A stretch of 64,000 nt of DNA from Balanoglossus misakiensis (taxonomy: Eukaryota > Animalia > Hemichordata): the NCBI GenBank assembly GCA_040954595.2, contig CM082584.2, positions 1,040,281 to 1,104,280 on the forward strand. The letters are read 5' to 3'. Position numbers and translations under genes: made by a program. Below are positions 3,496 to 41,812 of the stretch, piece by piece. Within the stretch, counting starts at the first letter, position 1; each line of letters starts with the position of its first letter. The notes under the pieces are model-generated. The model was not told the origin of the DNA and made no database searches. It was given only the letters and a program-made list of their open reading frames with translations.

Positions 3496-3670
3496 CAGGG
3501 CACATTTTTTTATCTCGTGCGCACGACTTACGTGTGCATGTGATATTTTCTCGTGAACACGAGTGCGCTCGCAATTTTCTCGTGCGCACGAGATATGCAC
3601 GAGATAGCATGTTTCTCGTGCACACGAGAAAACATCTCGCTGGAACAAGATACTATCTCTTGCACAAGAA
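3496..3670. repeat. Cluster of short palindromic (CTCGTGCGCACGAG-like) repeats, probably a non-autonomous element remnant
   Basis: Repeated tctcgtgcgcacga / tctcgtgaacacgag / tctcgtgcacacgaga motifs. Confidence 0.55.
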
Positions 3671-6169
3671 ATAGAATAACTGGCAGCCACTATGATGTCT
3701 GCCACAGGCAAATTTAAATATTCCACTCTGGATCTTCTTTCAGCCCTTCGGAAAACATGAGCATTTATGAAATCCGGCTCTCAATTTTTCGAGAAGTTCC
3801 AGCAGTTGTGGTGTCGCCAAAAACGAATGTATGCCATTCCTGGCGGAAAAAAATATGCAAGAGACGCTTGCAATACACTGCCATCTACCTGACCGCCCTA
3901 CATGCCTTAATGTAAGGTAGAAGGTCGGGCGGTAGGAAGAGTTCACCAAAAGAGGGCGCATTTTATCATCCATTGATTTATACTGTGTACGAGCAGAGAA
4001 GCCTCAGTGTTTGCGGTTAGAACCGTATCGGTAAGACAAAGACAGAAGAGTTGACAGACAACAAACTTATTCAGTTTATATCATATAATTCTTACTGTAA
4101 AACGTTCCCTGAATAAAGCCTTGTGCTCATAAGAACATTGAAGATTGTCGCATACAGACCGACACCCTTTTATCTATTGTAGGTATTGAATAGAACGCTA
4201 AATACCTGTGTATTTCTTATTCATTATGCAATGATGTAACACAACAAGTTTCGGACAGTGTGAAGAAAGGGCCAAAGCACTCTTGCAAGTTAGTGTTGTG
4301 TACTCTTTTCCAACACTGCTGCAAGCTGTTCAGCAACTGATGCTGCTTGTATCTCCGATGACAAATGGACAGTCTGTGTGCTGTCAAAGTAAATCCATCA
4401 ATTTTGCGGAGCTGAAAGGAAAATGGCAGCTTGTCAAACTCAAATCTGCCAGACGAAATAGGGAAAGAAATGCATAACAGGTAATCCACCATAGTATGAA
4501 TTTTAGCCAGCATCCTATGAAATGCGGTGAAACGGAACTGCAATTAATTTTAAATGAATTCTGCTCAAATTGTTTTGTTAGTTCTCAACATTGGATTGGA
4601 ACCGTTAAATATATTGTACCGTATAACATTATCATACAGGTTAGTATGTCAAATATTTTTCCATTTGGCATTTTCTTCTTGAGGTCATTTCAACAGTATG
4701 CACACCACAGTTTGTGAGATATGGACAGAAACAAACAGGAATCTATGCAATGTTATAATAGTATATTATTGTTAACAAGAAAGCGGCAACTCTCTGCCTG
4801 GCAGAGAATAATGATAGTCTTTTTGAAAAAAAGGGCGTGCTGAGGATATGGTCAGTCAAAAACATACATGTATAAGGTATGCCTGAACTAATTTTTAATA
4901 TGGTGTACATAAATATTTATGCATTGTCGCAATGACTGGAGGTCTTTAAATGACCAAGCTGTATGGACACCTCATTCAATGTTACATATATTTGTTATTA
5001 CATGTTTTATTGAAATTGCCAGTTGTCTGTTTTAATTCTGGCAGTTCTGCTGTGTCTTTTGTCTTGCCCTGACAGAATGCAGTAATATTTGCAGTACAAG
5101 AGGAGTGTCAGTAAATAGTGGAGCAATATCTTTCTACGAATGTACTCATGCATTGCTCCAAAGTGAAGTACATTCGCAAAACCAGTTTGGGAAATCGGGA
5201 CTCTTTTCAAGATAATACCACATTTTTGTGGATGTCACATGACATGGAAACACTCTAGAATCACGATTGAGATAAGGTTTCGGTTTGATATACCACTTCC
5301 TTGTTATTTCAATCTGTATGTTTTCTTAACCCCCTCCCTCGAAAAAAGGTAATTGAGGTTATTGTAAAATTACCTGAAAACAAACAGGCTACTCTAGCCT
5401 CCTTTTTATGAGGTTTGTGATGTAACATATTTTGAATTTCGTGAATCGATCAAAAGTTTCCGTGCACTAACTATCAAAACTATACCAAAAAATAATTTGG
5501 GCAATTCATAAGGAGAATCTAGTGGGTCAGCGGCTATAGAACTGACGTAAGTGTAAGTATCAGAGGATTGTGGATACGAGGCTGGGAAGAGCAAAACTCG
5601 AACACTCATGAAATCTACACGTGACGCCAAATTCTTTGTAATATGAACAGTGGAAAACTGCCATGCCATCCCTCTAAGTGCAAACTTCCAAAGATTTCAA
5701 TCTGGTGATATTTAAAAAAAATATTTTATTCAAATTCATGTGGTGATATTTAAAAAAAATATTTTATTCAAATTCATGTTATAAATTAAACTTGCATCTA
5801 TGATATAGAAATGACTCTGTCTTATATAACAAAAATACAAATAACTTGGTTAGATGACCAAAGATTTCCCATCTCGAAAAGTTTCTACCAAAATGACTAA
5901 CTCCAAATCTGCTAAGAGAGCCCTAGCAAATTTAATCACTGCACATTACTCTCGATAAAACGAAATATTGCGCATTCATTTTGTCCTTGAATTGAAATGC
6001 ATGGCCAGTGTTCATAGACTTCACACACACAGGATGTTTAAGGAGTTGAATTGTTATTGACAGCGACCAGGTCGGTAGATTCTATTGGATGAAGAAAAAA
6101 TGAAAAGACAGTCAGTACATAGCTAAATTCTCCTATACAAGGGCGTCTTCAATTGGTACAGTGACTGAC

Positions 6170-6245: not shown

Positions 6246-6924
6246 GGATGAGTCGTAATAATATGCTTCAATCATAGGGGCTTTGAAAATTATTAAAATA
6301 AAATAAAAAATAATGTACTCACAACCGACATTTATACAACAGACAGCTCAAGAAACTCCTCCATGTGTACAATACTTTGCCAATTTAGTGACAACATCAG
6401 CTTGCAGAGCACGTGAGCACCGCTTTCGCCAGCCTGTGGTGCCCGCATATCTTTTTTGTTCAGCAGTAACATGCACGACACATGCAGAGACACAAACGTC
6501 CATGTTGCAAATTGTAGATGAAAGCATCAGCTGCGCTGGTTTTATGGTCAGCATCACTGGCTGTTACATGAAAACTGTTTGTCACATACCTTAACCAACA
6601 TATACGTGTATCTGTATGGAAAGAAAGTAGGCTCACCCCCGGTACAGTATTATTTTATTTTGCATGCACGCAATGGCCTGAATTTGCTAAACTGGGATCA
6701 TCTGCGCGCATTTCAAAACGTGCTCGTTGCTTAACTTCGCGTGCTTTACTACTCACAATTATTCCACTTGTGAACGAACACGTCACCCAATTTTACAGTG
6801 TAGCCATGTGGAAAACTGGTGACAAGGTAATATTTCATTCGAAGATCAACCTACGTTCAGAAAGTTTGCATTGTGGTGAATTCTCACTGCTCTCGCAATG
6901 CGGTCTGTGGCTCACTGCCGCAGA

Positions 6925-6967
6925 CACAGCCGTATTCAGCCTGAATTCTAGTTGGAGTAAAGAAATA
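6925..6967 (+). repeat. Left-hand (3'-end) bipartite TIR: CACAGCC + 11-bp spacer + GAATTCTAGTTGGAGTAAAGAAATA
   Basis: The box at 6943-6967 is the exact reverse complement of 14344-14368. Confidence 0.92.
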
Positions 6968-7548
6968 CAAACTCACAAACCTTACCAAATTACATCGATA
7001 GAGGGCGATATTCATATGGCAATCCTGATCTGTGCTGTGGTCACAAATTTAATACAATACACATTTTAAAAGTACAAGTTTAAAAAAAAATGTATGTAGT
7101 TTGAAAATTTATATTATTTCACTTTTAAATTCATAGATTTTTTCAATTAAATTATATTTTTAATTAATGTTTTTGGCCACGACCTTAAAAAATCATTGCT
7201 CTTGTTTTGTTGGACATACCATGAACCATTTGGTGGGATCTGTTCACTGGATATACTAAAAAATATGACAATAGGGGATTGTATATATATATATCTATAT
7301 CTATATATATATATATAGACACATATCTATATATATATGTATATATGTAATATTTAGACACATGGGCACACACACACACACTTATATAAATATATACCGG
7401 TATATATGTGTGTTCCGATCCATACACTCACACCTCTATGAACTACATCCAAACATCACAAGAAATGATTACTGACAAAACTTGTACTTTTTTAACCATT
7501 TATTCTTTTCTTTAGCAAAGTGCATGCATATCACTTCATCTTAAACAT

Positions 7549-10500
7549 TTAGCTGCTATCTTTGCGAGCCCTTTTCCTTATAGGTGGTTTAGGGTTTCCT
7601 GGGTGATTCCTGATATGATGATCTTTCACCATGCACTTCAACCTGTCTACGTCATTTGGCATTGAGGCATAACTCCTCTCTGCTGTGTTGAAGTGATGGT
7701 GAATGACCTCAATACCTTGCTCACCTAGAAAACCCAGCCCCATATTTGTCATTTCAATTTGACTGACAACATGACATTCAAGAAGGTGCATCTTTGGAAA
7801 CACAGATTCTTTAGGGAAATTTGATCTGTAATATTCCATAAGCCCTCGTATGTTGATACCTAGGAGAAAAAGAGAAAATATAAAATCCTTAGTGAGTGGT
7901 AATTTAAGAAATTGCAAGAGGTTTATCACTTTATCCACTAAACACTAAGGAATCCAAATGTAAAGAGTTACAACTACAACATGAACATACATATAAATGT
8001 AAACATCAAAATAAAATAAAATACAATAAATATAAAAATTATACACTCAGAGAGAGAACAAAAAAGGTGAACACAAGAAAAAATACAAATACAAAATAAA
8101 TTATCGTTGATTATCCAAACAAGAAAATAATACTTATTTTATGCAAACTTCAACATTGAATACATTTACAGCATGCAGCAACCAGGCTTCTAAATCTGCC
8201 CGTGGCTTCTCTGGTATAATTCAAGTATCTACAAACTGCCAAATAGAAAAAAAAACACCATAGAACACGGTTAGTTCAAATACATTATGAATAATCGAAC
8301 AAATGTGATTATCTTGATAAGAATAGTCACCAAGCTCAGTTATTTCATCTTGGGTCAACCTCCTTGAAAGAGAATATGTGTTGTGGCATGATGCAAACAG
8401 TGTCAGTAATGGTTTGAATTTGTCCCTTATGGCCTCTGCATCAGTAATCAGTTCTGGTGTCATCTCCTCAGTACACTGTACCACACTATCAACAATGATG
8501 TTGATATTCTTGTCCTGAATGTGAGATGGAAAAGATCTTATGTTTAATAGGTGTACGTGTTTGCATGAATGCATGAATAAGAAAATGTCAGAAACAAATT
8601 GAAAATGTATTTGTGAATATCTACAACAAAAGCAGAGTAAAACTAAATATTAATTTAACCTTTTCATTTCTAGGATTTGACCTGTATGAAATGAAAATAC
8701 CAACAGGCAAGCATACAAGCAGCAGATAACTTACTGCCTTGGGGAAACTTAAAATTTTAAGAAAGCTGCATGCCATTGTTATCTACATAAAAAAATGAAC
8801 TGGGGTCAATAACCACAAATCATGCCTTATTTTGCAGTTACTCTTATCCTCTGAAGTAAAACAATTTCTTCACTAGATTTAAAACTTGAATATTTGGGAA
8901 GCAATACAATATACTAGTATTATAGAAACCTTGCAGCATGTGTTGACATGGTTTCCAATGAAAGACTTTCCATGGTAAGCCTGTCTGTACACATGAATTT
9001 TATTTAGACTCCTATCAAGTTTCCTGACTGTATATCCAGCATCCCTTGGTAAGTTTCCTTTCAGGCTTGCTGCATCCTCTCTCTGTGTGGAAACAAAACT
9101 GTCAGTGAAACTATTGCAAAGCTGAAGTATGAAATCAAGAGTAGCATGGTTATCCAAAAGACAGGTGAAAATGAGGTGAAAGACTAGGATTATGTCCAAA
9201 ATAAATGTTTGTTTCTCATACCTCAGCACTTGAAATAACTATGGCAACAATTTTCCTGTTATGAGTACACATAAAATTTGGTTTTCTTTTTTCTGGTGTC
9301 ATATGAAACATTATATTATTCTGTTTCTATTACTGCAAATAGAAAAAAATCATTGACATGATCAAAACCTAGCATGAGAAACAAACACTGCAAAGTACTC
9401 TAACCCTAACCTTGGCCTTGGCACTTGCAATTAGCTTTTCCTGCACATCTGATGCTTTTGAAATAGCAGCTAATGAAAGGGAATCATCATCGCTGTCGTC
9501 ATCACTATCATCATCAAGAAGTTGTCTCTGAATGTTATTCTCCATGGCAGCAGCCCTGGCTTCTTGAGAGTCGGCCTCCCTTTCCAAGACAAGGGCCTCA
9601 CGAAGCAATGACACATATGCATCAAAACGTGCTGGTTTGAAGACAGGTTCATCAATGTCGTCATTTTTTTCCATAGCACAGAACATCTTAAGATCAAGTT
9701 CTGCACATGCATTTTCCAGCAACTCAAAAAACCTCTTATATAAGCCAAGGCTTATATGCAGTGCTGGAATTGCAACCTGGAAGCAAAACAAAATCAATGT
9801 AACTGTGAATAAAAAAAATACTGAGTTAAGTAAACTTTAACAGGCCTATTTGGAATATACTGTCTGGCTACTTAGTATTCCCTCAACAATAAATGTAATT
9901 ATTTATAGAGAAGATCATCAGTATACAGTTATGTTTTACATATTTTAGATTTTTTTGAGACAAACCCAAGACCTGAAGTAGCATTCACAAAGCCAGGACT
10001 CAAACCCACTAAGCTAACTTCCCAAGCTAAAAAAAGACTTCTTCTTTAGTTGCAATTTGATCCTGCATGTCTCCATCACATGTGCATATCATATGGTAAA
10101 GTGACAACTGGTAATGCTAGGAGCAAATAAAACTGTTTAACAACCAAGTCAAAATGACAATTATTGATTAAACTGCACACCCTGTTTAGAGGAATATCAA
10201 ACAAAGGCTTGTTGATACAGTTGTTGAACATCAACGCAGTCTTCTTATCACTCCCTGCTGCTACATAGGCCTGGTTGTCAGCTTTCAGTTGCTCAAGGGA
10301 CCGTTGTTTTATTTCTGGTCTGTCTCCTGGTTCACGCTTTGCTTCCTCCTTGGTAATAGTACACCAAAGACAGAAATATCTGCCTAAAGACAAATTACCC
10401 ATGAATTATTGCACATTTTGTACATTTGCTGAAAATAAATTATAATCATTCTTTCACATGGTAAATTACATATAGTGACTGGCTGACTGATAAACAAAGC

Positions 10501-13500
10501 TGCTGATAAACACTAGAGCACAATACTATTATCTAATAACTCCATCATTCATGAATGGAAAACAAGTGATTAGTAGCTCACAATTGACTAATACCTTATG
10601 TGTACTTACCACTTGCACCTGATAACCCATAAATGGTTGTCAGATATTCATAGTCACCAGCAAGAAAAGGAATAACCTTCTTATCTCTATGGAAGAAAGG
10701 TTTGAAAGTTAAAGGCATGGTACATAGCATAAAACATGTTGAAATAACAAATATTCAGTTTGCCAGCACAGTCACTATGAGTATGGCCAGCACTGCTATT
10801 GTTGACAATTGAATTGATTTCAATTGTAAGCGATAACAGTGTTTGTTATACATACACTGGTTGTGCTGACAGAATCGATATTGTGTGTTTCAACATGGTA
10901 TAAGGAACAGACAACACAGTGTTAGTTGAAAGAATCAAGCTAAAAGTATCTGAAACAAATAAAAGTTACAGCTACATGTACTGAGTGTCAGAAAACCAGC
11001 CATTGTAAGAAAAGGTGTGCATCAGTTTGAATAGAGCTGAACAGTTATGTACAATCCTCTACCATGGGTAATGCTGCAGAAGAGAAAACTATGACTAGAT
11101 ATTTTAATGCATAATTGAAATATTTGCATCATTTACATGTATATCATGTACTCACCTCCATGTGCAACTCTCTAATGAGTTGATTTGGTCTAAATTAACC
11201 TTGTAGGCAATCTCAAGGTTATGCCTTGTATCCGGTGCAGCAAAAATATTCCACACCACTGTGTTTTCAATTGAATTAAGGTTGGCCACATTACAAATCT
11301 GAAAGACAGATTTCATGCTGCCACCTCCCTTATCGCCCCCAACTTTACACCAGACTTCATCACAGGGAATAGTGCTTTCCTGCCAAGTAAGTTTATTTTC
11401 TCTGAAATATAAAGTAGATTGATATAATAATATCAATATAATAAATGCATTACAAACATGGTAGTAAAAAATGTTGAAGAATGAGAATGAAAAGACCACG
11501 TGTACAAAATATTGTCTAAAATGTGAAGTGAAATGTAGGTACCATTAGTCTAATTTAATTCAATTGAAAATGTGTAAAGTAAGGTCAAAACAAAACATAC
11601 TATTTATTTTTGACATTATATGATGTCTTTCATTTTTACGTCAATGAAGTTGAATGTTAACTCCAAATTATACTCCCTACCAGCATTCACAAGAACATTT
11701 TAGGGATAACTGAAAGTAAAATCCAAATTTGTTGATTATTCTCAATGTTACCTTTCCAAACACTCAAGCCTAGTAATGATTGCATCCTTCACATTCTCTA
11801 TTACTACCAATGGTGCAAGTCTGATTTCTGTGCAGTGTTTGCCATCTGTTCCCCTCACTTTAAATGTGAAGGGAAGTCTTTCCGCAGAAAGGGGCAGGGA
11901 TAGCGTTTCAGCAATTTCTCTGTCCCTTGTCTCTCCTTGGACATGTATGTTCCAATTTCGCAACCATCTGAGGAAAAAAATAGATTATGTTGAAATGCAT
12001 GTGTACTTACCCATCCCATGACACATTGCCACTATTGACAGGTTTGACTGTACTAGTAAAATATGCTATAAAAACGCTGGCATACACACCCACTTAATCC
12101 TTACCTCCTCAGTGCCCTCAACTTATTCCATGGTAGTGACAAACTGGTCTTTAGCATTAGACCAGCTCCAGGAGGAACATTAGGCAAAAGACCAAGGGAA
12201 TGTAGTTCAGTCTTCCCAAATCTGCCCAGCTCCCGCCTAACCTGTTGTGCTACTGCTTTGCTGTCACCTGACGCACCTGACGCACTTTCTCTTGTCTTCT
12301 CTACAATGGTTGCTCGATGTGCCTGTGTACGAGTTGATACTCTGGTGGAATCCTTCGCTGCCTTTGGGACATACATCAGGTGAATAGGCTTATGGGAGAA
12401 AAATGACACACGCAAATATTTTATTAACATGGGGACATATGTAATGCAGGTAAATGGCCTTACTAGGAAAAATTACACACAAATACATATGTCATGCTTA
12501 AACATATCAGATATGTCAACAATTGAACATTGTGACAATATTACAAAACACTATAACTACTTATTCATTCCTACTACAGTCATAATAATTATGACATTAA
12601 TTTCAAATCAACACTGTTTTTTCCTTACCTTTGATCTAGTTTTGAATGTTATCGCCTCTCCCTTTCTAGAGCCAGGGGTTTGTTCCAGTTTCAGTTTGAT
12701 TATTTTGGTTGCCACTGTATCGAAACCAGCCATCTTGTCGATTTTTTCAGAACAGTTAGCAATGGTGTCAAGTGCTTCTTGTGGGGATATAGTACTGGTT
12801 GTTTTCACGGTCTCTGGCTGGTGTACCGACCCATTCACATCGATGTCAGTGTCATTGCAATTTACATGTAATTGCTGTTGCTGTTCAGGGAGCTTGGCTG
12901 ACGCATAATGATGATCATGGGCAATTGATGTGTAGGGGCAGCTTTCAAAATGGCCTTTCAGATCCCTCAATGGCAGTTCTCTAGTACATCCCCAATTACT
13001 ATAATCGCAGTGTATTGTTAGTGAACTTAGGATATTTCCCAACATGACTGGAATCGAAGCAACTAAATTGCTGTCTATTGTAACCCGACAGACAGGACAT
13101 GTTGGGGAAACTTTGAACCACTCTGCCAAGCAGGGGGAACAAAATGTGTGGGGGTTAGCACACAGAATTTGGACAGGCTCGTCCACAATTTCTTTGCAAA
13201 TAGGGCAATCGAGTTCTTGGCCAATATATGTGCTGTGAATGAATCGTTGTGGAGACAGTCCCAGTGAACACCTAAACCTCTTGCCTGCTTTGGTCTTTAC
13301 AACATTGACGAAATCTATATCAACGGGTGTGTCAGTTTGACTTTGAGTTCCTGAACCCAACTTCCTATCATCAGAGTCATTAGGAGTAGACACGATATTT
13401 AACTTTTTTTTTCACGTCCTCGTTTCGTCTGTTTTGGTTTCCTTCCGGGTCGAGACCGAAGGCAAACATCACACTCACCGTTTCGCGGATGTTTTTTCCA

Positions 13501-13767
13501 CAATGTCACCTTCGTTCTCGGGCTATAGCTAGCTGTACTGACCTGTGTTACATGTAAACAGTAGTCGACTGTCCGCTTGCAATTCTTGCAGAAACTATTT
13601 GGATGAACTGTCGATTCGTCGTTGTTTACGTCAACATTGAACGTATCGCGCAATTGGGTTTGGAAGCTCTTACACGCGTACGAAGTACTGACGATTTTTG
13701 TACCACAAATTCTACACAGTGTTGAGATTAGACCCAAATGTGCATCCAAATCTTTCTTGGTGGCCAT
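7549..13767 (-). CDS. RAG1-like (Chapaev-type) transposase, 10 coding exons, ~1059 aa after correcting one frameshift in the A9 run at 13404-13412
   Basis: Exons read by eye, all GT-AG and phase-compatible: 13767-12629, 12388-12105, 11967-11752, 11401-11156, 10686-10610, 10383-10181, 9776-9411, 9082-8930, 8514-8331, 7859-7549. Motifs: HLGLISTLCRICG..D..HPNSFCKNC..WKKH..CDVC (RAG1 N-terminal Zn finger); C3HC4 RING CPIC..C..H.FC..C..CPVC; HCDY..GC..HFESC finger; KVGGDKGG (D1); LAGDYEYL..GLSGASGRYFCLWC (D2 + CxxC); PALHISLG; FIGNH; PKMHLLECH; LGEQGIE (E). Confidence 0.9.
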
Positions 13768-14343
13768 ATTTTGCTTCAAAGATGATCTGTATTTTGATTA
13801 TGGCGCCACAGACACCGGTAACAGGTAGCGTATAGACGCCGTGACCATGGTGACATTGAGTCAATTTACGTCAATCACAATCACGAACTCTACCGAAAGT
13901 GTAATTACGTAGCCACACGCTAAATTCCGAAGCCACACCAACACTACAAAACGATCGTACATACAGCAAATTACCCCAGAAATTTGTTATTTACGTTGTG
14001 AAAATTGATTTAATTTTAAATCAAGCGCAAAAAAATACACATCATAATCATGCTCACCTACAGATCGCACGGCTACCGTGAAAAAAATCGCCACTAACGC
14101 AACCACAAAATCACACTTTGAGGCGATTGCAGTACATCCGGAAGCCAGCAAAATATCAGTGAGGTTGTTCGGACATCTTCGGAAACCAATTATACTTAGC
14201 AAATGTCACGATTATGTCCATATTAGGTAGTTACCCCGCCCAGAACTTGCTTCGATCGATCGGCGGCAATTCTCAAAAAACATGTGATTGAAATCCCGCC
14301 GCGAGTTCTCCCTATACACGAGATCTCGTGCGTTTGACATTGT

Positions 14344-14395
14344 TATTTCTTTACTCCAACTAGAATTCGCCTTACGTACGATATTAACAGCCGTG
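14344..14395 (-). repeat. Right-hand (5'-end) bipartite TIR: CACGGCT + 20-bp spacer + GAATTCTAGTTGGAGTAAAGAAATA
   Basis: The reverse complement of 14344-14395 reads CACGGCT GTTAATATCGTACGTAAGGC GAATTCTAGTTGGAGTAAAGAAATA. Confidence 0.92.
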
Positions 14396-14606
14396 CAGAC
14401 CGCATTACACGTAGAAATAAATTCTGTACGTCACAGTTCGTAGGTCGCATAGGTCATGGAGTTAATCCATTATACATTGCGGCTTACAATTTCTCGTGAC
14501 CCTCTTATCATGCAGCTTGTGTGTTACTGACCACTGACGCATGTCAAAACACTCAATATTTTTTTTAAATTTGCAAAATCTTTCATTTTAAAGTTGTGAT
14601 ACTCAC

Positions 14607-14757
14607 TGCAGATAGCATTCTTTTCAGTAGGAACTATTTCTGCTGCCATTTCAATATTGTCTTTATTCCATGTAAATATATTTCCTCCAATTGAACAGTC
14701 CCCCGCCACAGCTGCAACCTCTTCTGCAGTCAGAACTTTTGACCACATGTATGTCAT
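14607..14757 (-). pseudogene. Orphan exon fragment resembling the C-terminus of a pentraxin/LamG-like domain
   Basis: YMWSKVLTAEEVAAVAGDCSIGGNIFTW fits the pentraxin pattern (MW..VL...EI......C...GN...W). It ends at a GTGAGT donor, and no other exons were found. Confidence 0.5.
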
Positions 14758-15450
14758 TTAGTCAAGACAATTTGGGAGAACTGTAGTTTAAAGCCTCCAA
14801 AGCTGCCACTTTTAGCATTATTTTCATGATTTTATTTTCCAACTTAAATTGGTTCATCAAAATAAGCTTACTGATAGGTATACATAAACATCTTATCGAT
14901 GCCCGATTGTGACTGCATGTTGCAATTGGAACATGCTATGTATTAAAACGGTGCCTCACCGATTTAATCAGCCTTCATACAAACAATAGCAGCTAAGCAG
15001 CTATCGTGAAATGCGACGCCAAGTTATGACAAACCAATGCAAATGCAAGTAATATGGCTCAATGGTCACGGGTGAAGATTTTAGGGAATAGGGAATATAC
15101 ATATGAAGTATTGTACTCTGGAAAAAAATATGCCAATTTTAGCAGCTATAGGGTTTTTAAAGCGCGGGCGAAGTATGAACAGATGCAGTAAATATCGATA
15201 CATTGTATTTTGGAGGTTTCTCATAACCATGATTGGTTGGCTAATTATGCGGCGTTTTCTAAATAAAAGGAACAATATTAATTTATTGTTGGGGCTCATC
15301 TCTGTTAACATCTTGCCGTCTCTGCTGAGTGTTGGCCTCTTCCAGCGGCACGTGTTTGTCCTTTAGGGCATGCTGTAAAATATTTAGAATAGCGCTGCCA
15401 TTTGATCAAAGGATAAGCTGGCTTCGCGTGTTAGGGATGTGTGTCTTACG

Positions 15451-16202: not shown

Positions 16203-16276
16203 TTTTAACCGTAGTATTAGTTACGTAGTATAGATTGTGGTATAGATTTATTTTTGAGTATAAATATAGAAGAAAC

Positions 16277-17758
16277 ATGGATATCGCAGAATTTATTGAG
16301 TCACCATCCCTTGCCGGATTGGAAGCATGTAAAAAGGTGGATTTAATTGAGATTGCAAACAAACTTGAGCTCAGCGTGAAAACTTCCATGCGTAAAGATG
16401 AAATTAAGCGTATCATTGTTGCATTTCTGGTCGATGAGGATAAATTGCCACTAGATGCTTTAATTCAGTATCCTGAAATTGAAGAAAAGTCGACAAATGC
16501 TGATTTGCGTCTGATGGAATTAAAAATGGAATTTGAATTGAAGGAGAAATTGAAATTAAAAGAAATTGAAATGCAGGAAAAATTGAAATTAAAAGAATTC
16601 GAAATTAGAGTAAAAGAAATTGAAACTGCGGAAAAGATGAAAATAAAAGAAATGGAAATGAGAAATAATCTTGAGAGAGAGTCAATGGGTCTTCGACCAG
16701 ATGTAAGAAATGAAGAGAGTTATTTTGATTTGGGAAAACAGATACGCTTAGTACCTCAATTTAATGAGGATGATATAGATAAATATTTCCAACATTTTGA
16801 GCGTGTCGCCAATAGTTTGAAATGGCCTAAGGATAAGTGGCCTTTGTTGTTGCAAAGTGTTTTGAGAGGTAAAGCTCAAGAAGCATACTCGAATTTGTCC
16901 CCTGATGAGTATGTCGATTATGAGGCAGTTAAAACTGCTATTTTGAAAGCGTATGAGTTGGTGCCGGAGGCATATCGACAGAAATTTAGAAATTTGCAGA
17001 AGTCGAGTCGTACTCATGTTGAATTTGCCCATTTGAAAGAGGTGTATTTTGACCGATGGTGCCGTGCTAAAGATGTTGGAAACGATTTTGATAAATTGAA
17101 ACAGTTAATTTTGATTGAAGAATTTAAGAGTTGCGTGCATGATGAAATCAAAACATATTTAGATGAAAGAGATATTGAGTCATTGCATAAAGCTGCCACA
17201 ATGTCTGATGATTTTGCATTGACACATAAACTTTCTTCTTACAGAGGTAAAGACCATGGACCAGGTAGGGCAACAGCGTCAGCGACTGTCGCCAATGCTG
17301 GAGGGTATAAACCAAATTATTCAAAACCTCCCATTCAGGTAAATCGTACAAGTGGATCAAATTTTAATCATCAGAATAAATTGAGAATTGGCTCGAGCCC
17401 TCCCATATGCCATTATTGTAAGAAACCGGGGCACGTAATGTCGTCATGTCCTACGTTTCCTCAGTGTTCATATTGCCAAAAGAGGGGACACACAAGAAAT
17501 GAATGTTTGCTTTTGAAACGGGCACAGCAAAATGTAGCGTCGCCTAATGCTTTTGTGTCTGCTTGTCCAAAAGTTGTTTCGGAAGCTTTATCAAGTCGTA
17601 TTGATGAAATTAGAAAACCCGTAATTAGAAAGGAATTTCAGCCCTTTGTTACAGATGGGTTTGTGTCAGTTGTTGGGGGGAAAACCTATGCCCATTCGGA
17701 TCTTGCGGGACACAGGTGCAACCCAGTCTTTGCTGTTAGAAGGAATTTTGCCTGTTGA
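16277..17758 (+). CDS. gag: Gag of Gmr1-like Gypsy (coiled coil, capsid/SCAN-like region, two CCHC knuckles)
   Basis: LVPQFNEDDIDKYFQHFER..W...W..LLQ; AYELVPEAYRQKFR; CHYCKKPGHVMSSC; CSYCQKRGHTRNEC. The homologous frame probably shifts to pol at the G6A4 run near 17675-17685. Confidence 0.9.
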   Translation: MDIAEFIESPSLAGLEACKKVDLIEIANKLELSVKTSMRKDEIKRIIVAFLVDEDKLPLDALIQYPEIEEKSTNADLRLMELKMEFELKEKLKLKEIEMQEKLKLKEFEIRVKEIETAEKMKIKEMEMRNNLERESMGLRPDVRNEESYFDLGKQIRLVPQFNEDDIDKYFQHFERVANSLKWPKDKWPLLLQSVLRGKAQEAYSNLSPDEYVDYEAVKTAILKAYELVPEAYRQKFRNLQKSSRTHVEFAHLKEVYFDRWCRAKDVGNDFDKLKQLILIEEFKSCVHDEIKTYLDERDIESLHKAATMSDDFALTHKLSSYRGKDHGPGRATASATVANAGGYKPNYSKPPIQVNRTSGSNFNHQNKLRIGSSPPICHYCKKPGHVMSSCPTFPQCSYCQKRGHTRNECLLLKRAQQNVASPNAFVSACPKVVSEALSSRIDEIRKPVIRKEFQPFVTDGFVSVVGGKTYAHSDLAGHRCNPVFAVRRNFAC

Positions 17759-18578
17759 TTCTGGGACGGATACTGGGGAGCAAGTTATTATACAAGGTAT
17801 TGAGGGAAATTTCCTTACGGTACCTCTTCATCGAGTAGTCCTTGATTCAAGTTTGGTGTCTGGTCCTGTAGTGGTGGGGATTCGACCGTCATTGCCGATT
17901 AAAGGTATATCTTTGTTGCTAGGCAATGATTTGGCCGGAGGTCGGGTCATTGCTGATCCTAAAGTGGTGTTTGGTCCAGTTACGTCTGCCGAAACCGAAA
18001 AGCTGGAGAATGACATTCCCGGTATTTTTCCTGCTTGTGCCGTAACACGTTCTCAGGTCAAGCACATGAACAAAGAAGCGCATAATTTAGAATCGATGTC
18101 TGATGATCTTGATTTGTCTGAGACTTTTATGGGAAAGTTGATTTCGAATGTTGTAGACGATGAAAGTTTATTGAAAGTTGATGATAATGTTTCGAAAACG
18201 TCAGTCGATAAAGTTGATTCGAAAATGTCGCTGTCTCGTGAGAAATTGATATCAGAACAGAGTAAAGATTCCGATCTTGCTCCACTGTTTGAAGTGGTTT
18301 TGTCTGTCGATGAGTTGAAAAAGGTTCCAAGGGGTTACTTTGTGAATCAGGGAGTACTGATGAGAAAATGGCGTCCTCCCACTGAGCCTGCGTCGAATGA
18401 ATGGTCGGTATTGTACCAAATTGTTGTTCCTGAAAGTTATCGATCTCAGATTTTGGGATTGGCCCATGAGGGTCCAATGGGTGGACACTTGGGTGTTTCC
18501 AAGACTATGTGGAAAATTACTCGACATTTCTATTGGCCAAAAATTAGAAAGAGCGTTGCTGATTATTGCAGAAATTGT
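17680..18578 (+). pseudogene. pol: Pol part 1: aspartic protease and integrase Zn-binding N-terminus, cut by nested insertion
   Basis: ILRDTGATQSLL protease motif; LAHE..MGGHLGV.KT...F.WP...V..YCRNC, continuing as HVCQ at 22258. Confidence 0.9.
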
Positions 18579-18920
18579 TGAAACGTCTACACACAACTGT
18601 ATTTCAATGGACTCTTTATTCACATCAGACCATGCTCGACATCTACAATCACACACCAAAAACAAGATGGCGTTCCCTCTCCAAAACGAGGCTACCCACC
18701 TCCCACCTCTTGACACAGAGGGCGCCATTCACAAAAGTACTCAAATGTCTCATAACTTCCCCCCCTTCCCTGCACATGTCCACATGTGACAAGAATAAAT
18801 TCAAGAGTCCAAGTGTTCCATGCCTGTTGCAAATAATTAAATAAAATAAATAAATAAATAATGTTTAACAATCAATGCATTTTTTTCATACACAGTAGTC
18901 GACAGTCAACAAAGACAGTT

Positions 18921-20122
18921 TTAGTCCGATATCTGTTCCGTGAGTACATAATCCTGCAACCGACGTGGAATACGGCGCACTCTGGTAGAACGACGCAAAT
19001 TAGATTCTGCACCATGGTTGCCATCAGTCTGCTGGCTCCCTGACCCTGCAGCATCCATCCCTTCATTTCCAGTCGGCTCCATTTCCGTCTGACGGTCTGG
19101 TACCACACTCCCCTGGGTGGGTAACACACTCCCCTGGGTTGGTATATTTCCTATACGTGAACTTCCCAAAAGATCCCCATCCTCAGAATCGGAATCGGAA
19201 TCACTACTATCGGCAACTGACGGTTGGTCATTACCATTAGTTGACACCTCTGGATCTCGCAAAGGCGAACCAGCATCAATTGTCTGCTCACTCGTCTTAC
19301 TGTATAAATGTCCTGGCCTCTCTCTGTATGGACGAAGTTGATCATGATGTATCACTTTCCTTCTCCGCCCCCCCCCCCCCCCCCCTGGCTTATCCTGTAC
19401 AACACATCGCTGATTACCTTGACGACGATGTAAGGACCATTCCATCGGGCACTGAGTTTAGGTGAACGTCCCTTCCTTCTGGCATTGTTAGCAACCATAA
19501 CTTTGTCACCAACATTGTATTTACAGAATCGGCTGTTTATCTTTGACTTCTCACAACGTCTGTCTCTCAATTTAGCCAGTCTATCATACACCAGTTTTCT
19601 GGCCTTGGTGAGTTTGTCAAAATGATCTTTGACCCTGTCCCGGGCTGTACACAAACCTCTTGAATTGACTGTGTCTGTGGGTACTGGCTGCAATGCAGTT
19701 CTAACCTCCTGACCGTACAGTAAGAAATACGGTGTATGCCCGGTAGCATCATGTTCACTCGTGTTATAGGTGTGGATGACTTTTGGTAGATGGTCATCCC
19801 AATTGTCTTGACACTCGTTAACATAGTTCTTTAACATGTCAGCCAAAGTAAGGTTGAAATGTTCTGTTTGTCCATTTCCAGATGGGTGGTAACTTGATGT
19901 TCTTGTTTTTGATGTGTTGAACATTCTGCACACCTCAGACAGGAGATTACTTTCGAAATTTCGTCCCTGATCACTGTGTAATGTCTCTGGTGGACCAAAC
20001 AACAAACACCAATCATTGATGAATATTTCTGCTATGGTAGAACTTTCTTGATTGGGTACTGCTTTAGCTACAACAAATTTACTAAAGCCATCATTTATGG
20101 TTACAATGTAGCGATTTCCTTT
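18921..20122 (-). pseudogene. N-terminally truncated integrase of the nested element, frameshifted at a poly-G run (~19367-19385)
   Basis: GNRYIVTINDGFSKF..FGPPETLHSDQGRNFES..YHPSGNGQTEHFN..TGHTPYFLLYG..WNGPY; C-terminal LRRSTRVRRIPRRLQDY. Confidence 0.88.
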
Positions 20123-20232
20123 GGGAAGGGGGGGAAGTTATGAGACATTTGAGTACTTTTGTGAATGGCGCCCTCTGTGTCAAGAGGTGGGAGGTGGGTA
20201 GCCTCGTTTTGGAGAGGGAACGCCATCTTGTT

Positions 20233-20865
20233 ATTTACAGGTTTGCTGAGGTAAGTATTAGGTTGTGTCAGTCCTTTGAAAGTCACATTTTTCTTTACAA
20301 AATCAACTTCCATGCTTCCCAGTTTTTCCATAACATCCGTTCCCATCAAGAATTCATTGCGCATGAGCTTTGGAGACATTACATACACCCATGTTGGACC
20401 AATGACAAAATTTTGAACAGTAAGATCGACTTGCACCTGGCCATCAAAGCATACGGGTGTACCATTAACTGCTTCTGGCTGAATATTCACAGGATACAGT
20501 GGCAACCCGTTTATGGCTGGTAGATCACTTCTGACTATGGTAATTTGTGAACCACTATCTACGAATATGGGCGTCTCAACTCCATTTATCATACCCGTAG
20601 TCCTATATTGGTCGCCGCATGTGCGTGAAGTCATTGTGGTTAATATTTGGGGTGAGAGTTCATCGTTGTTCATTTGTTGTTCGGTAACAGTTTGTTGACT
20701 ATGATACTGATTCTGGTCATGTGGCAATCCCCAGGCTCTAAGGCCCCGGACAGGCAGTTCCGGGGTCCCCCGAACATTGCCACTCACCAGATCATCAGTA
20801 CACAGACCATCCATGGCCGTCTTCTCAACAGAGGTCAAGGGCTGGCCAGCGCCCCGACCTCCCAC
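20233..20865 (-). pseudogene. Protease portion of nested pol (-1 frame relative to gag), truncated before RT
   Basis: INGVETPIFVDSGSQITIV..FLMGTDVM. Confidence 0.85.
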
Positions 20866-22058
20866 TAGTTTGGGTAAAATTCAGGACAATTGGCTGCCTT
20901 ATGTCCGTAACGATGACACTTGAAACACTGGAACCGATTAGGACAGTTTCTTCTAAAATGGCCGAACCGTCCACATTCAAAACACTTACCAGTTGTCTGT
21001 GCAGGCCTTGTTGATGAGCGACTGGTTCTACCACGACCTCTTTGTTGGTTGCTCTGGTTTCCGTACACCCGATTAACTTGCGCATCAACCATTGCTGAAA
21101 TTGTTGGCTCTAAGCTTGAAATTGCAGATTCAACAGCCTCGCGTACCACACTACTTACGGTTGTATCGACCTCCCCTACTTGCATGACGTTGTCAACAGA
21201 AATAGTGTTCTCCTTTGTCTGATATTTTTGCCAGTTCGTGGCAAACAGAAATGAAGAGAGATGAATTGTCAGCACAGCGGGAATTTCATTGCACAGATTA
21301 CGGTCGCTGCATCTCCTTTCAAACATATATTCCGATTCTGAGGATGGGGATCTTTTGGGAAGTTCACGTATAGGAAATATACCAACCCAGGGGAGTGTGT
21401 TACCCACCCAGGGGAGTGTGGTACCAGACCGTCAGACGGAAATGGAGCCGACTGGAAATGAAGGGATGGATGCTGCAGGGTCAGGGAGCCAGCAGACTGA
21501 TGGCAACCATGGTGCAGAATCTAATTTGCGTCGTTCTACCAGAGTGCGCCGTATTCCACGTCGGTTGCAGTTCGTGGCAAAATCCACGACCTCACTTAAC
21601 TCCGCTTCGGCAACTTTGTAGTGTAAGGCAACAGATAACTGGTCGCCCAATTCCCTAGGAAGACCGACGATAAACTGACCTTTGATAATTGAGTCTAATC
21701 CGCTACCAACGCATTTGGGAAATCCTTCAATTGCAAGCTTTCTTAGGGAACGCACGAACTTCCCAATGCTCTCCCCGGATTCCAGTTTACGGCAATGAAA
21801 TTCCCGCTGTGCTGACAATTCATCTCTCTTCAATCCAAAATGTTTTCTCAACTCTACCTTTATCTTATCTATGTCCTTTTTGTCATCTACCGACAGCAAT
21901 TGGATTACGGTCGCTGCATCTCCTTTCAAACACGTGCGTATTATTGCTGCAGCTTTGTTCTCTTTACCTTCTGCCTCAATGATAGCATCGAATCTATCCA
22001 ACCAAGGTTCCAGTTCTCCTCTCTCCTCCCCGGTGAAATATTCTACTTTTTTGGCCAT
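20865..22058 (-). pseudogene. gag: Gag of nested element, interrupted by a 322-bp mosaic insertion (21246-21567)
   Basis: MAKKVEYFTGE..WLDRFD..ESIGKFVRSLRKLA..QFIVGLP. Removing the insertion and one 14-bp duplicate rejoins VVDFATN-WQKYQ..., leading to CFECGRFGHFRRNC and CFKCHRYGHKAANC knuckles. Confidence 0.88.
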
Positions 22059-22253
22059 CGTTTACACCGCTGCCACCATTGAAACGTCTACACACAACTG
22101 TATTTCAATGGACTCTTTATTCACATCAGACCATGCTCGACATCTACAATCACACACCAAAAACAAGATGGCGTTCCCTCTCCAAAACGAGGCTACCCAC
22201 CTCCCACCTCTTGACACAGAGGGCGCCATTCACAAAAGTACTCAAATGTCTCA

Positions 22254-24708
22254 TTGTCATGTTTGTCAGTTGGTCGGAAAACCTAATCAATCTGTTCCTG
22301 TCGCTCCGTTGAAACCCATCCCTGCCTTCGATGAACCGTTTAGTAAGATTCTGATTGATTGTGTAGGGCCTCTGCCAAAAACTAGATCTAGGAATCAGTA
22401 TTTGCTGACTATTATGTGTATGTCTACGCGTTTTCCTGAGGCGATTCCACTTCGGAACATAACGGCTCCAGTGATTGCCGGAGCACTGTCACGTTTCTTT
22501 GCATGGGTTGGATTTCCACGAGAGATTCAATCTGACCAGGCAACTAATTTTATGTCTGGGTTATTTCAGCAGCTAGTTTATCACATGGGGATAAATCAGG
22601 TTAAATCCAGTGCGTATCATCCAGAGTCGCAGGGGGCTTTAGAGAGGTTCCATTCTACCTTGAAAAATATGATTCGAGTGTATTGTTTCAACAATGACAA
22701 GGATTGGGACGAAGGGGTGCATTTGTTGCTTTTTGCAGTTCGAGAGTCTGTTCAGGAGTCGTTGGGGTTTAGTCCATTTGAATTGATATTCGGCCATCGA
22801 GTGCGCGGTCCTCTTAAATTGCTGAAGGAACAATGGCTTGACGACAGTCCATCGGGTATGACCTTGTTGAAGTATGTGTCCACATTTAAATCCAGACTCA
22901 GTGAGGCATGTGAACTTGCTCGAGCTAATTTGAAATCATCCCAAAATAAAATGAAACACTTGTACGATAGGGTAGCGAAGAGTCGCGCCTTTAAACCTGG
23001 TGACAAAGTATTAGCGTTGTTGCCCATAACCGGAAATGCTTTGAGCGCACGTTTTCATGGTCCGTATAAAATTCTAGAGAAGGTTGATGATGTAAATTAT
23101 GTAATTGAAACTCCTGATCGTCGAAAGGCGACACAATTATGTCATATAAACATGTTAAAGCTTTATCGTAATGAAAACCATGTACATAATGTATTGCCTA
23201 TAATGTCTCCAGAAGTAGATCATGAAACAGACTCGACATATGTAGCAGTTGCTGACGTTAAGAGCGACCATGATGTAAAATTGAAAAACTCAGAGCTGTT
23301 GAGTAATCGGGATACTTTATTGGGGCATTTGTCACCTGACCACAGGAAAGATATTAGTCAGTTATTAGATAAGTATGTCGATTTGTTTCCTGATGTGCCG
23401 AAGAGGACTAATGTGTGTTTTCATGATGTAGATGTGGGAAATACCAGACCCATCAAACAACATCCATATCGGGTGAACCCTGAGAAGCTTGAGAAAATTC
23501 GGGGTGAAATTAAATATATGTTGAATAATGATATCATCGAAACTAGCAATAGCTGTTGGGCTTCGCCATGTCTTTTGGTGGATAAGCCTGATGGCGGTGT
23601 AAGATTTTGTACTGATTACAGGAAAGTTAATGCCATCACCAAAACTGATTCTTATCCCATCCCTCGGATTGATGACTGTATAGATCGCATTGGTAAAGCA
23701 CAGTATATAACTACTTTAGACTTGCTTAAAGGTTATTGGTGTGTTCCATTGACTGAAAGAGCCAAGGAGATATCTGCTTTTGCCACACCAGATGGTTTGT
23801 ATCAGTATAAAGTTATGCCTTTTGGCATGAAAAATTCTGGAGCTACTTTTCAACGAATGATGAATTCATGTGTAGAAGGGATGAAAGAAACAGATCCCTA
23901 TATCGATGACATTGCCTCATATGGTGGTGTACTTTGGTCTGAACATCTAGCATCACTTGACAAATTGTTTGACCGATTGCGACGAGATAACTTGACTGTA
24001 AATTTGAGTAAATGTCAATTCGGAAAGGCTAAAGTTAGGTATTTAGGCCATATTGTGGGGGGAGGTGAAGTGGCTCCTCTTACTGCTAAGATTAAAGATA
24101 TTGTTGAATATCCGGTGCCAGTAAATCGACGTGGTTTAATGCGTTTCTTGGGGATGGCCGGTTACTACAGGAAATTTTGTAGAAACTTTTCTGAAGTGGC
24201 TGCCCCTCTAACCAATTTGTTAAAGAAGGGCAGAAAATTTGAATGGTCTTCGTCATGTCAGATATCATTTGACAAAGTCAAATCGTTGCTGTGTACTGTA
24301 CCAGTGTTGAAAGCACCCGACTTTACCAAACCATTCGCATTGAATGTAGACGCGAGTGACGTGGGAGCTGGGGCTGTATTACTTCAATTTGATGGTGCTA
24401 ATGTGGCACACTCAGTTGCTTATTTTTCTAGGAAATTTAATTCTTGTCAACAGAATTACTCTACTATCGAGAAGGAAGCCCTTGCTTTAGTCTTAGCAGT
24501 TCAGCACTTTGAAATCTATGTAACTTCATCTGGGAAACCCGTTGTAGTTTTTACAGACCATAATCCGCTGGTATTCTTGCATAAGATGAGAAATAAGAAT
24601 CGACGATTGCTTAATTGGAGTTTGTTGTTACAAGAATATGACTTGGAGATTAGGCACATTCGGGGAAAAGATAATGTATGCGCCGATGCTTTATCCCGTA
24701 TGTATTAA
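22254..24708 (+). CDS. pol: Pol part 2 of Gmr1-like Gypsy: integrase core, RT, RNase H (open frame)
   Basis: IDCVGPLP..QSDQATNF..HPESQGALERFH (DDE); GPY; then WASP, DYRKVN, LDLLKGYW, MPFG, YIDD, YLGH; DASDVG, YSTIEKE, TDHNPL, ADALSR. Confidence 0.95.
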
Positions 24709-39463: not shown

Positions 39464-40885
39464 GGGGGGACACCAACATCGTAGTCAGTGAGGTCATCTA
39501 TGGTGGTGGGCGCGTCTTCCACTCGGCACTCCTCCGCGCACGCTTGGGGGATAAAAAATGCATCAAAAACCCCTGGCGCGTCCTCGCTCCCCCTGCGTCG
39601 ATGGATTCTGTGCGACTGCTTCCGCCCCCGTCCTCTCTGGTTGCTGTGTCCGGATTGATGATGTTTTCCGGTGAGGTCGGATTTCCCGGAATTCTTCCTG
39701 TCGTGATTGGGATACCCACCTCAGCAGTATGCTAAGGACACGCCAGTGGATGAGAATCGCTGGTGTGGTGGGGGAGCTCAGTCGGAACCTGTTCGGCACC
39801 TCCCACCCCTGGAAGACGCACAGGCGCTTCATCATCACCATGGACTCCGGTGAACAAAAGGATTCCGTAGGGATCCGTCCAGGTCCGCCCCTGCGGATAT
39901 AGAAGTCTAGCAGGTCGGGTATTTCATTTCCTGGACCACACAGCCAGTATAGGTGAGTTTCTCTAACGCCTCAACCGCGTCCCGCTCGCGGAATACTACC
40001 GGCTTCTCAGTAAAAATAACTGGAAGGTGGCACTGAAAGGCGTGTTTCTTCAGTTTGCGCGTGGACCTCCGGCCTCCCGGGAACGGACATGGAGAAGGGC
40101 CTGATGAGTAATGTGGAACAGAGGATAGGGGGCTCCTTCGGGCCGGCCTGGCGCTCCTCCAGCGGCGTTCGTCTTCTTTGGGCGGTTCCGGCGTCGGATA
40201 CCGGATCGGTGATCGACGTCTGGGGCTGAGATCTCCCCAGCGTGAAAAGGATGGTCGTTCACGGGAAGGTGGGCGGTCCCGCCTTTCCTCTCGAGAACGC
40301 TCCGGTCGCGGCGACCGGGTTGGGGATCTGGACCTAGTAGGGCTGCCGGGGTGGCGTCGAAGTTCCCAGGGGATTAGATATTCCCCCGCCTCCAACGTCG
40401 CCTCCAGCTCCAATGGGTTGATCAGTGACTGCAGCGGCAGCATTTCTTGGCGTGGGGGTGATGGCTCCTGCAGCAGCCCTTGGTTTCCCCCGTCTCTCGC
40501 TACTGCTATTGGGGGTGATACACGGGTGCGGGGTGGGTCTGGCCCTTCCGACACCTCCATCGCCTGGTCCTTGTCGCCACCGAGTACCTGTTTTTCCAGC
40601 TGCGGATCCCGGAAGATGCTCAAAGTTTCCTCCAGGTCGTCAGCTGCGGTGGTGGTTCTTGTGGGCTCTTGCGGGGAGATATGGCCAACGAATCCCCCAC
40701 GTACGCGGCCTGGATTGAACTCCCGAGGTAGTGTGCAGGTTTTTATGGCTGCGTCGGATGGTACGGGCAGGTTGGCTTCATTCTTTTCCTTCCCGTATAC
40801 ATGCATGGCCTCCTCCCGTACCGTGGACATCCATCCTATGTCGCCTAGAACCGTGGCTACTTGACAGTTCTCACGGAGCATCAGG
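39464..40885 (-). pseudogene. GC-rich fragment of a TE-borne accessory ORF (RS/RP-rich region, C2H2-like finger, P..P..L.HWRVL motif), frameshifted
   Basis: Abrupt rise in GC. CPFPGG..LKKHAFQCHLP; after a frameshift, LLDFY..MKRLCVFQGWEVPNRFRLSSPTTPAILIHWRVLSILL. Confidence 0.5.
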
Positions 40886-40905
40886 AACAGTATTTTATGT
40901 CTCAC

Positions 40906-41812
40906 CTCCACTTCAGTTGTCGCTGTTGTATTTAATGTGGACGATGTTTTATATCTGTTGATAACCAATGGGCCTAGTTTAACTGTGGCACCTACATCCA
41001 GTGGCAGCGCTGTTTTCTCACCCCAAAGGTTGACTTCAGCATCTCTTGTGCCATCAGTTATGGTCAGTTTACGTCTCTTTGTAGAATTCGATGTATGTGT
41101 CACTGATTCATACTGTAGTGGAAATAAAATGGAAAACATTGAATGTTAATAATTACGAGTAGTAAATGTTGTGGAGAAATAGTGCAAGAGTGGTTGTTTT
41201 TTGTCAGTTGCTTTTTAAAATTTGAACTGCAAAATGATGAATCGATGGCAGTAATTTTGACCCGAGGTGAGTTGACAAGGCATGGTTGTATCATATAAAT
41301 GGATTTTCAATGTACGTGATCGCATGGAGGCTGCCATATTGGATTACATCTGAAGACCTTCCCATTGGGCTTCGGTTGAATTCGGGAAAGGTCTCTAAAA
41401 TGTAATGGGTCATTCAATTTTGTAGAGTAAATTTCTAAAAATGTAGAAGATGGGAGGTTAAGATACCCAAAATGACTACGGCAAAAAAAAAGTCAGGCCC
41501 ATAAGTTTCGGGGTGCGATTATAACGTACCTTTGCTCTATCATAGAGGCAAATGGTATTATCTCTTCCAGTGGAAAAGTTGCGGAGCTGTACGTATTCTC
41601 CCTTCTGTAATCTGTTCAGCCACTTCGGATTTTCTTTCCAGAATTTAAGTTCCAGAACGTTGCCATCCTGCTGCATACAAGGCACGCTAAACAGTTTCCC
41701 GTTGGCGGAATTCCGGATCTCGACATCCTCCATGAGGCGCAATTTCAGTGCCACGCCTTGGCTGGTTGGGGATGAGGGACCGGGAGCCGGGGATGCCATA
41801 ACGCCGTTAAAC
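40906..41812 (-). pseudogene. Spliced gene remnant encoding RPA-like OB-fold domains
   Basis: Exon 41812-41530 (..LELKFWKEN..LQKGEYVQLRNF..) and exon 41112-40906 (RKLTITDGTRDAEVNLWGEKT..VGATVKLGPLVINRY..LNTTATTEVE) have canonical AG/GT. The middle exon carries a stop. Decayed copies lie at 42245-42615, 43050-43200, 61180-61340 and 61815-62054. Confidence 0.6.

Follow-up and report, generated by a model that had tools for sequence, protein, structure and literature searches.

The stretch of DNA analysed here, called the window at its full length of 64,000 nucleotides, comes from the hemichordate Balanoglossus misakiensis (assembly GCA_040954595.2, contig CM082584.2, positions 1,040,281 to 1,104,280 of the forward strand). 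It contains a Chapaev DNA transposon of 7,471 bp at window positions 6925–14395, with CAC at its start and GTG at its finish. The left terminus at 6925 reads CACAGCCG and the right terminus at 14395, in reverse complement, reads CACGGCTG. The element is a new family of RING-bearing Chapaev, a known kind of transposon, with one frameshift in the window copy. Its predicted gene lies on the minus strand in 10 exons separated by 9 introns of 137–471 bp, all GT-AG and phase-compatible, and the spliced product has 1,059 amino acids (aa) when the frameshift in a run of A is read through with an X. For comparison, contigs assembled from two DNA runs of one sample (X1 and X2) were aligned with the window copy. 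The features, in window positions, are as follows:

6921–6924, plus strand: left copy of CAGA, the 4-bp duplication of the target site (TSD); the empty-site joint skips 7,475 bp
6925–6967, plus strand: short 3' end (downstream of the gene), with the terminal CAC decamer and a 25-bp block from position 19; a run contig begins at 6925
7549–7859, minus strand: exon 10, aa 957–1059 and stop, with H981/H986, E1003 and the catalytic E1007; AATAAA at 7504
8331–8514, minus strand: exon 9, aa 896–956
8930–9082, minus strand: exon 8, aa 845–895, with the GN motif
9411–9776, minus strand: exon 7, aa 723–844, with the LH motif; a long hairpin of helices, its loop acidic, is predicted here and is unalignable to RAG1
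10181–10383, minus strand: exon 6, aa 655–722, with C659/C662
10610–10686, minus strand: exon 5, aa 629–654, with the second catalytic Asp, D640
11156–11401, minus strand: exon 4, aa 547–628, with the first catalytic Asp, D570; Pfam DUF1280, E 7.9e-11
11752–11967, minus strand: exon 3, aa 475–546
12105–12388, minus strand: exon 2, aa 381–474, with predicted helices like those of a nonamer-binding domain (NBD; about aa 399–447) and the start of the dimerisation/DNA-binding region, from the fold of homolog P0006
12629–13767, minus strand: exon 1, aa 1–380, with the Chapa/NZD zinc domain, the RING and a second zinc finger
12938–13009, minus strand: second zinc finger, aa 254–277, C-C-H-C spacing, Sina/TRAF-like with a weak Pfam match, at the position of the RAG1 C2H2 finger
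13088–13207, minus strand: C3HC4 RING finger, aa 188–227, followed by Arg228; Pfam zf-C3HC4, E 4.7e-7
13403–13411, minus strand: A9 run with the sole frameshift of the window copy; one extra base in the run contigs
13462–13740, minus strand: Chapa/NZD domain, aa 10–102; Pfam RAG1_imp_bd (PF12560), E 5.9e-14; RAG1 NZD 21wb, E 8.6e-8
14344–14395, minus strand: long 5' end (upstream of the gene), with the terminal CAC decamer and the 25-bp block from position 28; run contigs halt at 14395
14396–14399, plus strand: right copy of the 4-bp TSD CAGA

Since contigs of X1 and X2 terminate precisely at 6925 and 14395, the termini are fixed. Together with CAGA on both sides, the CAC and GTG termini and an empty site, this bears out the intact TSD and both ends claimed in an earlier sequence-only reading of this DNA. 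A 6-bp TSD, GCAGAC, was also considered; it fits at the window site alone, and was excluded by the run-contig ends and by the 4-bp TSDs of relatives with the same core. The empty-site joint was found in an X2 contig in which 7,475 bp are skipped and, since the flank is a high-copy repeat, it is most likely a paralogous copy of that repeat. No contig spans the right junction among the run contigs listed. The contig breaks at both termini suggest that the element sits in more than one flank. The 25-bp block shared by the two ends (6943–6967 and 14344–14368) is a perfect inverted match, with a naive chance of about 2e-11, and no second copy of either end is present within the 64-kb window.

The repeat into which the element was inserted spans window positions of about 6450–6924 and 14400–14830. 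X1 contig depth was about 3,500–4,000 in this repeat and about 230 inside the element, a depth not equal to copy number. The insertion point is one arm of a 35-bp hairpin, which is restored in the empty site. In the run contigs, the 3' end (6941–6972) was found joined to 8927 in exon 8 with four differences, and another contig carries the terminal 74 bp of the 5' end (14322–14395) with a different interior; these contigs suggest internally deleted or unrelated derivatives.

Homologs align without gaps over eight of the nine exon junctions; the exon 7/8 junction is gap-free with the closest homolog only. The 10 phase-compatible exons of the sequence-only reading were retained on this basis and on the nine GT-AG introns, as was its claim that no room is left for a RAG2L, given 624 bp between the stop codon and the end of the element, 628 bp before the ATG and the short introns. 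The frame is open in the contigs of X1 and X2, which have one base more in the A9 run. The frameshift of the window is either an assembly slip or a fresh break in this copy, and the family form has an uninterrupted frame. The window element differs from X1 by about 0.2%, with 15 substitutions and 3 indels; each indel is one base long and lies in a homopolymer. The places that vary against X1/X2 number 17 as listed, 5 of them coding (3 synonymous and 2 nonsynonymous). The element is complete and its family likely young, and at the sequence level the open-frame run contigs support near-activity of the family. The earlier description of the element as complete and young was upheld, and its near-activity is supported for the run contigs; the window copy is frameshifted and stops at codon 123.

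A single dead or host-domesticated copy, instead of a recently mobile family, would agree with the frameshift and with the lack of a second copy in the window. This explanation is improbable: both ends and the TSD are intact, the high-copy repeat that the element splits was also observed in its empty form, the run contigs end precisely at each terminus, as requires several flanks and not one, and the frame is open in both runs.

Two noncoding segments of the element were also observed. The 117 bp located 5' of the ATG (13768–13884) are kept in the Ptychodera flava homolog, where they are annotated as coding, and contain stops in the window; this conserved segment is probably a promoter or 5' untranslated region. 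Intron 4 holds an imperfect 84-bp inverted repeat (10730–10902, 70%), possibly an old miniature inverted-repeat transposable element.

Family placement was studied with Pfam over 11 exon frames, which gave RAG1_imp_bd and RING in exon 1 and DUF1280 in exon 4. DUF1280 was above the cut-off in six of six scanned homologs, and no match to the RAG1-core Pfam family was found in the 11 exon frames or in these homologs. According to the literature, DUF1280 corresponds to Chapaev transposases (PMC3985635), and the hallmarks of Chapaev are CAC…GTG termini, a 3–4-bp TSD (4 bp outside Chapaev3), C(2)C, LH and H(4)H (PMC4079192), the DDE (Asp-Asp-Glu) core with these three motifs being also part of the definition in PMC12730594. 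The window element has them all (CAC…GTG, 4-bp TSD, C(2)C, LH and H(4)H) in addition to Chapa and DUF1280. Over 911 alignment columns, its product shares 64% identity with a P. flava protein that carries no annotation. The nearest homologs are acorn-worm proteins, with which the window product groups at a Shimodaira–Hasegawa-like approximate likelihood ratio (SH-aLRT) of 100 in a quick unrooted tree of family members only, with locus rows assembled from tblastn pieces.

The family comprises 947 representatives at E up to 1e-30. By profile, 29 of 31 long new representatives were positive for the NBD-like segment, 24 for Chapa and 14 for RING. When longer proteins were searched with exon 1, 1 of 1,407 candidates was kept. 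Among viral contigs, 53 pattern matches contained no relative. One of 12 stretches from prokaryote genomes was a relative (L081); this Chapaev-type transposase lies in a bacterial bin, on a contig of 2.3 kb that is likely contamination by animal host DNA.

In the N-terminal region, the Chapa zinc ligands H10, H93, C99 and C102 agree with the type I (RAG1-like) domain defined in bioRxiv 10.64898/2026.01.24.700457. All three Chapa motifs (H-x3-L-x3-CRxCG, D-x3-I-HP-x2-FC-x2-C and W-x2-H-x3-6-C-x2-C) are present in the product, with Leu replaced by Ile in the first and Ile by Val in the second. The RING is an intact C3HC4 finger, with 32 of 43 residues identical to the nearest homolog versus 23 of 60 in the linker. 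It also has Ile190, Trp217, Pro225 and Arg228, which we take to be relevant to E2 binding, and from its sequence a role as E3 ligase is plausible. In the core, D570, D640, C659/C662, L728-H729, G887-N888, H981/H986 and E1007 follow the order D, D, CxxC, LH, GN, HxxxxH and E proposed previously. The catalytic and zinc residues are near-invariant among 40 homologs. Between LH and GN (9411–9665), a helical hairpin with an Asp/Ser-rich loop is predicted; it is absent from RAG1 and its sequence is poorly conserved across the family.

This domain order without RAG2 is the expected one for a Chapaev, as published in 2015. Two Chapaev subgroups with Chapa followed by RING were described, and seven proteins with Chapa, RING and C2H2 were aligned (PMC4411706 supplement 5); no description of a RAG2 gene in Chapaevs was found in the literature searched. 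The full RAG1 architecture without RAG2 noted from the sequence is present, then, but is not unusual. The element resembles Chapaev-1/2_BF, -1/2_NV and -4/6/7_HM (PMC4411706, PMC4079192) in its CAC…GTG termini, 4-bp TSD, single transposase gene, succession of Chapa, RING, second finger and DDE core with C(2)C, LH and H(4)H, and DUF1280. In contrast to those described, it belongs to a new family near unannotated acorn-worm proteins and is near-intact. N-RAG-TP of Aplysia (PMC8355894) also carries a RAG1 N-terminal-like region on a DNA transposon; unlike it, as that element is described, the window element has a full catalytic core and a RING as well.

Folds were predicted for two homologs, P0006 (37% identical to the window product) and P0004 (36%). 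The P0006 model had a predicted local distance difference test (pLDDT) score of 88. Structure search with it retrieved RAG1 (E 2.6e-15), BbRAG1L (1.4e-11) and HzTransib (1.2e-7). Alignment with the RAG1 core gave Z 28.8 with a root-mean-square deviation (rmsd) of 3.6 over 456 aligned residues, and Z was 26.0 with BbRAG1L and 25.4 with HzTransib, the next unrelated rows being below 9. Made on a homolog, the comparison with these three proteins that the sequence-only reading had called for gave a positive outcome, and the core fold, as modelled for both homologs, is of the RAG1/Transib type. Identity of the homolog models to RAG1, RAG1L and Transib in structural alignment is 12–18%. A core-profile search of the Protein Data Bank (PDB) gave no significant RAG1 or Transib core by sequence; the best match was BbRAG1L at E 0.025, where the second Glu of GEQGxE (E1007) falls on the Glu of the RAG1L GNE. 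P0006 aligns from its residue 122 onward with RAG1 from 459. Residues 76–121 (window aa 399–447) form two helices that overlay RAG1 405–458, the NBD as compared here, in 2 of 35 RAG/Transib rows; the model suggests an NBD-like segment in the place of the RAG1 NBD.

With RAG1 and RAG1L/ProtoRAG (PDB 4wwx, 6xnz and 6b40), the element shares the order NZD-RING-finger-(NBD)-core, with only a putative NBD in the element, the core fold (homolog Z 26–29), the CAC ends and a difference between ends of about one turn, as in the 12/23 recombination signal sequences (RSS) and the 10 bp of PflRAGL-A (PMC10629977). It differs in having no RAG2L, a 4-bp instead of a 5-bp TSD, a core only 15–18% identical, the long helical insert between LH and GN, a CCHC second finger and an inner motif that is not A-rich. 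It also has no CCGHC tail, and no GRPR/K motif was seen before the NBD-like helices. Transib (HzTransib, PDB 6pqx; PMC1131882) is likewise a single-gene RAG1-fold DDE transposon with CAC ends and without RAG2; unlike the element, it has neither Chapa nor RING, its TSD is usually 5 bp (the length is variable), and its identity in structural alignment is 12%.

These likenesses raise the question of a RAG1L-family, Transib-derived transposon that lost RAG2L. RAG1 ranks first for the N-terminus (E 5e-23) as well as for the fold, the left end CACAG is like an RSS heptamer, and Atlas neighbours include RAG1 clusters (0.92–0.94). Such an origin is nonetheless very improbable. The TSD is 4 bp and not 5 bp, the core belongs to DUF1280 and not to the RAG1-core family, BbRAG1L scores no better than E 0.025 with the core profile, and the structural identity is low. 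The distance from D640 to E1007 is 367 aa, versus 253 aa in RAG1 and 206–214 aa in Transib (PMC1131882), and TransibSU is more than 30% identical to the RAG1 core (PMC4411706). In addition, the N-terminus resembles the Chapaev-NV/BF rows by eye. The term RAG1-like used for the element holds for its N-terminus and fold, but the element is not a RAG1L.

The two ends of the window element are unequal, a feature that the sequence-only reading does not mention. Both are bipartite, and the identical 25-bp block starts at position 19 at the 3' end and at position 28 at the 5' end, an offset of 9 bp. In order to compare relatives, 80 of 114 related metagenome loci were fetched, and the 47 with sufficient coding span and flank were tested. 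Calling ends by terminal identity and a 4-bp TSD alone gave 11 pairs in 10 loci, and L030 came from a separate analysis. These were reduced, with the window left out, to seven TSD-defined families, as four loci were one family and two candidates were dropped, one being a long terminal-inverted-repeat element of another type and one a microsatellite. The best inner match was offset by 9–12 bp in four of the seven families, tied in one (L049, whose motif occurs at 21 as well as at 31) and lacking in two (L030 and L036). The offset score was 4.5/7 versus a shuffle mean of 1.34 (P 0.0013), or 4.5/9 with the dropped candidates included (P 0.005). In a wider set with the window and three TSD-less pairs, 8 of 11 were offset against a null mean of 2.15; this count is partly circular and was not the main test, as L001 and L002 had first been chosen partly on the inner block.

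The inner motif is CA(C/T)TTAG in most relatives and ATTCTAG in the window, starting at 20–21 on one end and at 30–32 on the other. By the definitions in PMC10629977 and PMC1131882, RSS nonamers start at 20 and 31. There were 457 terminal-like decamers in 81 loci, 60 of them with the inner motif. In loci that did not define the motif, 13 of 22 distinct matches fell on these 5 positions (20–21 and 30–32) out of 45, several of these loci being close kin of the training families. A motif-guided search gave four end pairs, three of which then had a 4-bp TSD, and two single ends without partner. Related elements with the same core have a TSD of exactly 4 bp. The asymmetry was seen in four deep branches of the tree, so that the independent count is about four and not eleven. 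At L030:5034–5060, the 5' end repeats the 3' end's first 20 bp and has no inner motif, as though it had been converted.

Some Transib families are known to have unequal ends, in 12/23-like pairs (PMC1131882), and the same is known of RAGL elements (PMC10629977). For Chapaev, no description of unequal bipartite ends or of NBD-like helices was found in the literature searched; early Repbase-era reports lay outside this search and may hold one of end asymmetry. No Chapaev transposition assay was found in the literature search either.

The whole is best explained, with good confidence, as a complete RING-bearing Chapaev from a likely young family. Its predicted DDE transposase of RAG1 fold would most likely work by cut-and-paste, excising the element at the CAC termini, producing a 4-bp TSD on insertion and likely reading a short and a long end through helices located like the RAG1 NBD. 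Assuming RAG1/Transib chemistry from the fold and residues, a dimer would nick and hairpin the flanks via D570, D640 and E1007, with zinc presumably bound by C659, C662, H981 and H986. The core would recognise the terminal decamer, and an NBD-like dimer the inner motif, which lies near position 21 or 30. This dimer would tilt so as to accommodate a short end together with a long one, comparable to RAG on a 12- and a 23-RSS. This division of roles is tentative, being given somewhat less than an even chance. The RING may be an E3 ligase acting on the transposase or on chromatin, and would be accessory since many relatives have no RING.

It is nearly an even bet that the element is an ordinary Chapaev and that the inequality of its ends is a habit of structure and not a rule: the inner motif would be a binding site whose spacing may vary by a helical turn, with no requirement for unlike ends to pair. 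The two TSD-defined families without offset, the free polarity between lineages and the 23-like ends on both sides of most Transib families (PMC1131882) agree with that. What argues against a mere habit is that the 9–12-bp offset and the motif at 20–21/30–32 are kept in lineages with cores only about 30% identical, and that no motif-bearing family with two short or two long ends was among the end pairs called.

Several observations weigh against the explanation of the element as a Chapaev with a transposase that reads one short and one long end. The NBD overlay has an rmsd of 9.8–12.8 with no match at the sequence level. The 9–12-bp band was chosen post hoc, after the data had been seen, and most relatives come from one clade. 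L030 and L036 have no offset despite clean 4-bp TSDs, and the L030 family has moved, its 3' end recurring in L029 and L072. Polarity varies, with the long end at 5' in three branches and at 3' in a large fourth clade. With its A9 frameshift, the window copy cannot encode the full protein, and likeness to Repbase Chapaevs was judged from published hallmarks and a by-eye comparison of N-termini.

Other elements were found elsewhere in the window. Nested pieces of long terminal repeat (LTR) retrotransposons lie at 16229–24708, with SCAN/gag, protease, integrase, reverse transcriptase (RT) and RNase H, the integrase preceding the RT in the plus-strand element. An uninterrupted frame at 47308–52272 codes for a 1,654-aa LTR-retrotransposon polyprotein (RT, RNase H and integrase zinc domain) and adjoins a broken RT of long interspersed nuclear element (LINE) type at 46089–47285. 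Long minus-strand frames at 39907–41967 and 43006–43377 (412 and 163 aa) had no Pfam match, and a related plus-strand piece is present in the window.

The origin of the 12/23 rule and of the NZD/RING region of RAG1 is still debated (PMC4411706, PMC8355894, PMC10629977 and bioRxiv 10.64898/2026.01.24.700457). The proposal that this element is a relative of the donor of the RAG1 non-core region was correct as to its Chapaev type, but a donor is one of several published models. A common ancestor already having Chapa, RING and core was argued for in PMC4411706, and the shared fold, the NBD-like helices and the unequal ends agree better with this model than with a donor. It is possible, though we would not put it at one half, that Chapaev follows a 12/23-type rule, that the asymmetric-end mechanism, the NBD and Chapa-RING come from a common ancestor of Chapaev, Transib and RAG1, and that this element is a RAG2-free test enzyme. 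If the asymmetry is not enforced, the element would be a well-preserved but ordinary Chapaev. If the unequal ends of Chapaev are enforced, asymmetric end pairing would be older than the Transib/RAG lineage. With its two ends, a frame open at the population level and the full RAG1-like string of domains, a young element of this kind would make end pairing testable without RAG2.

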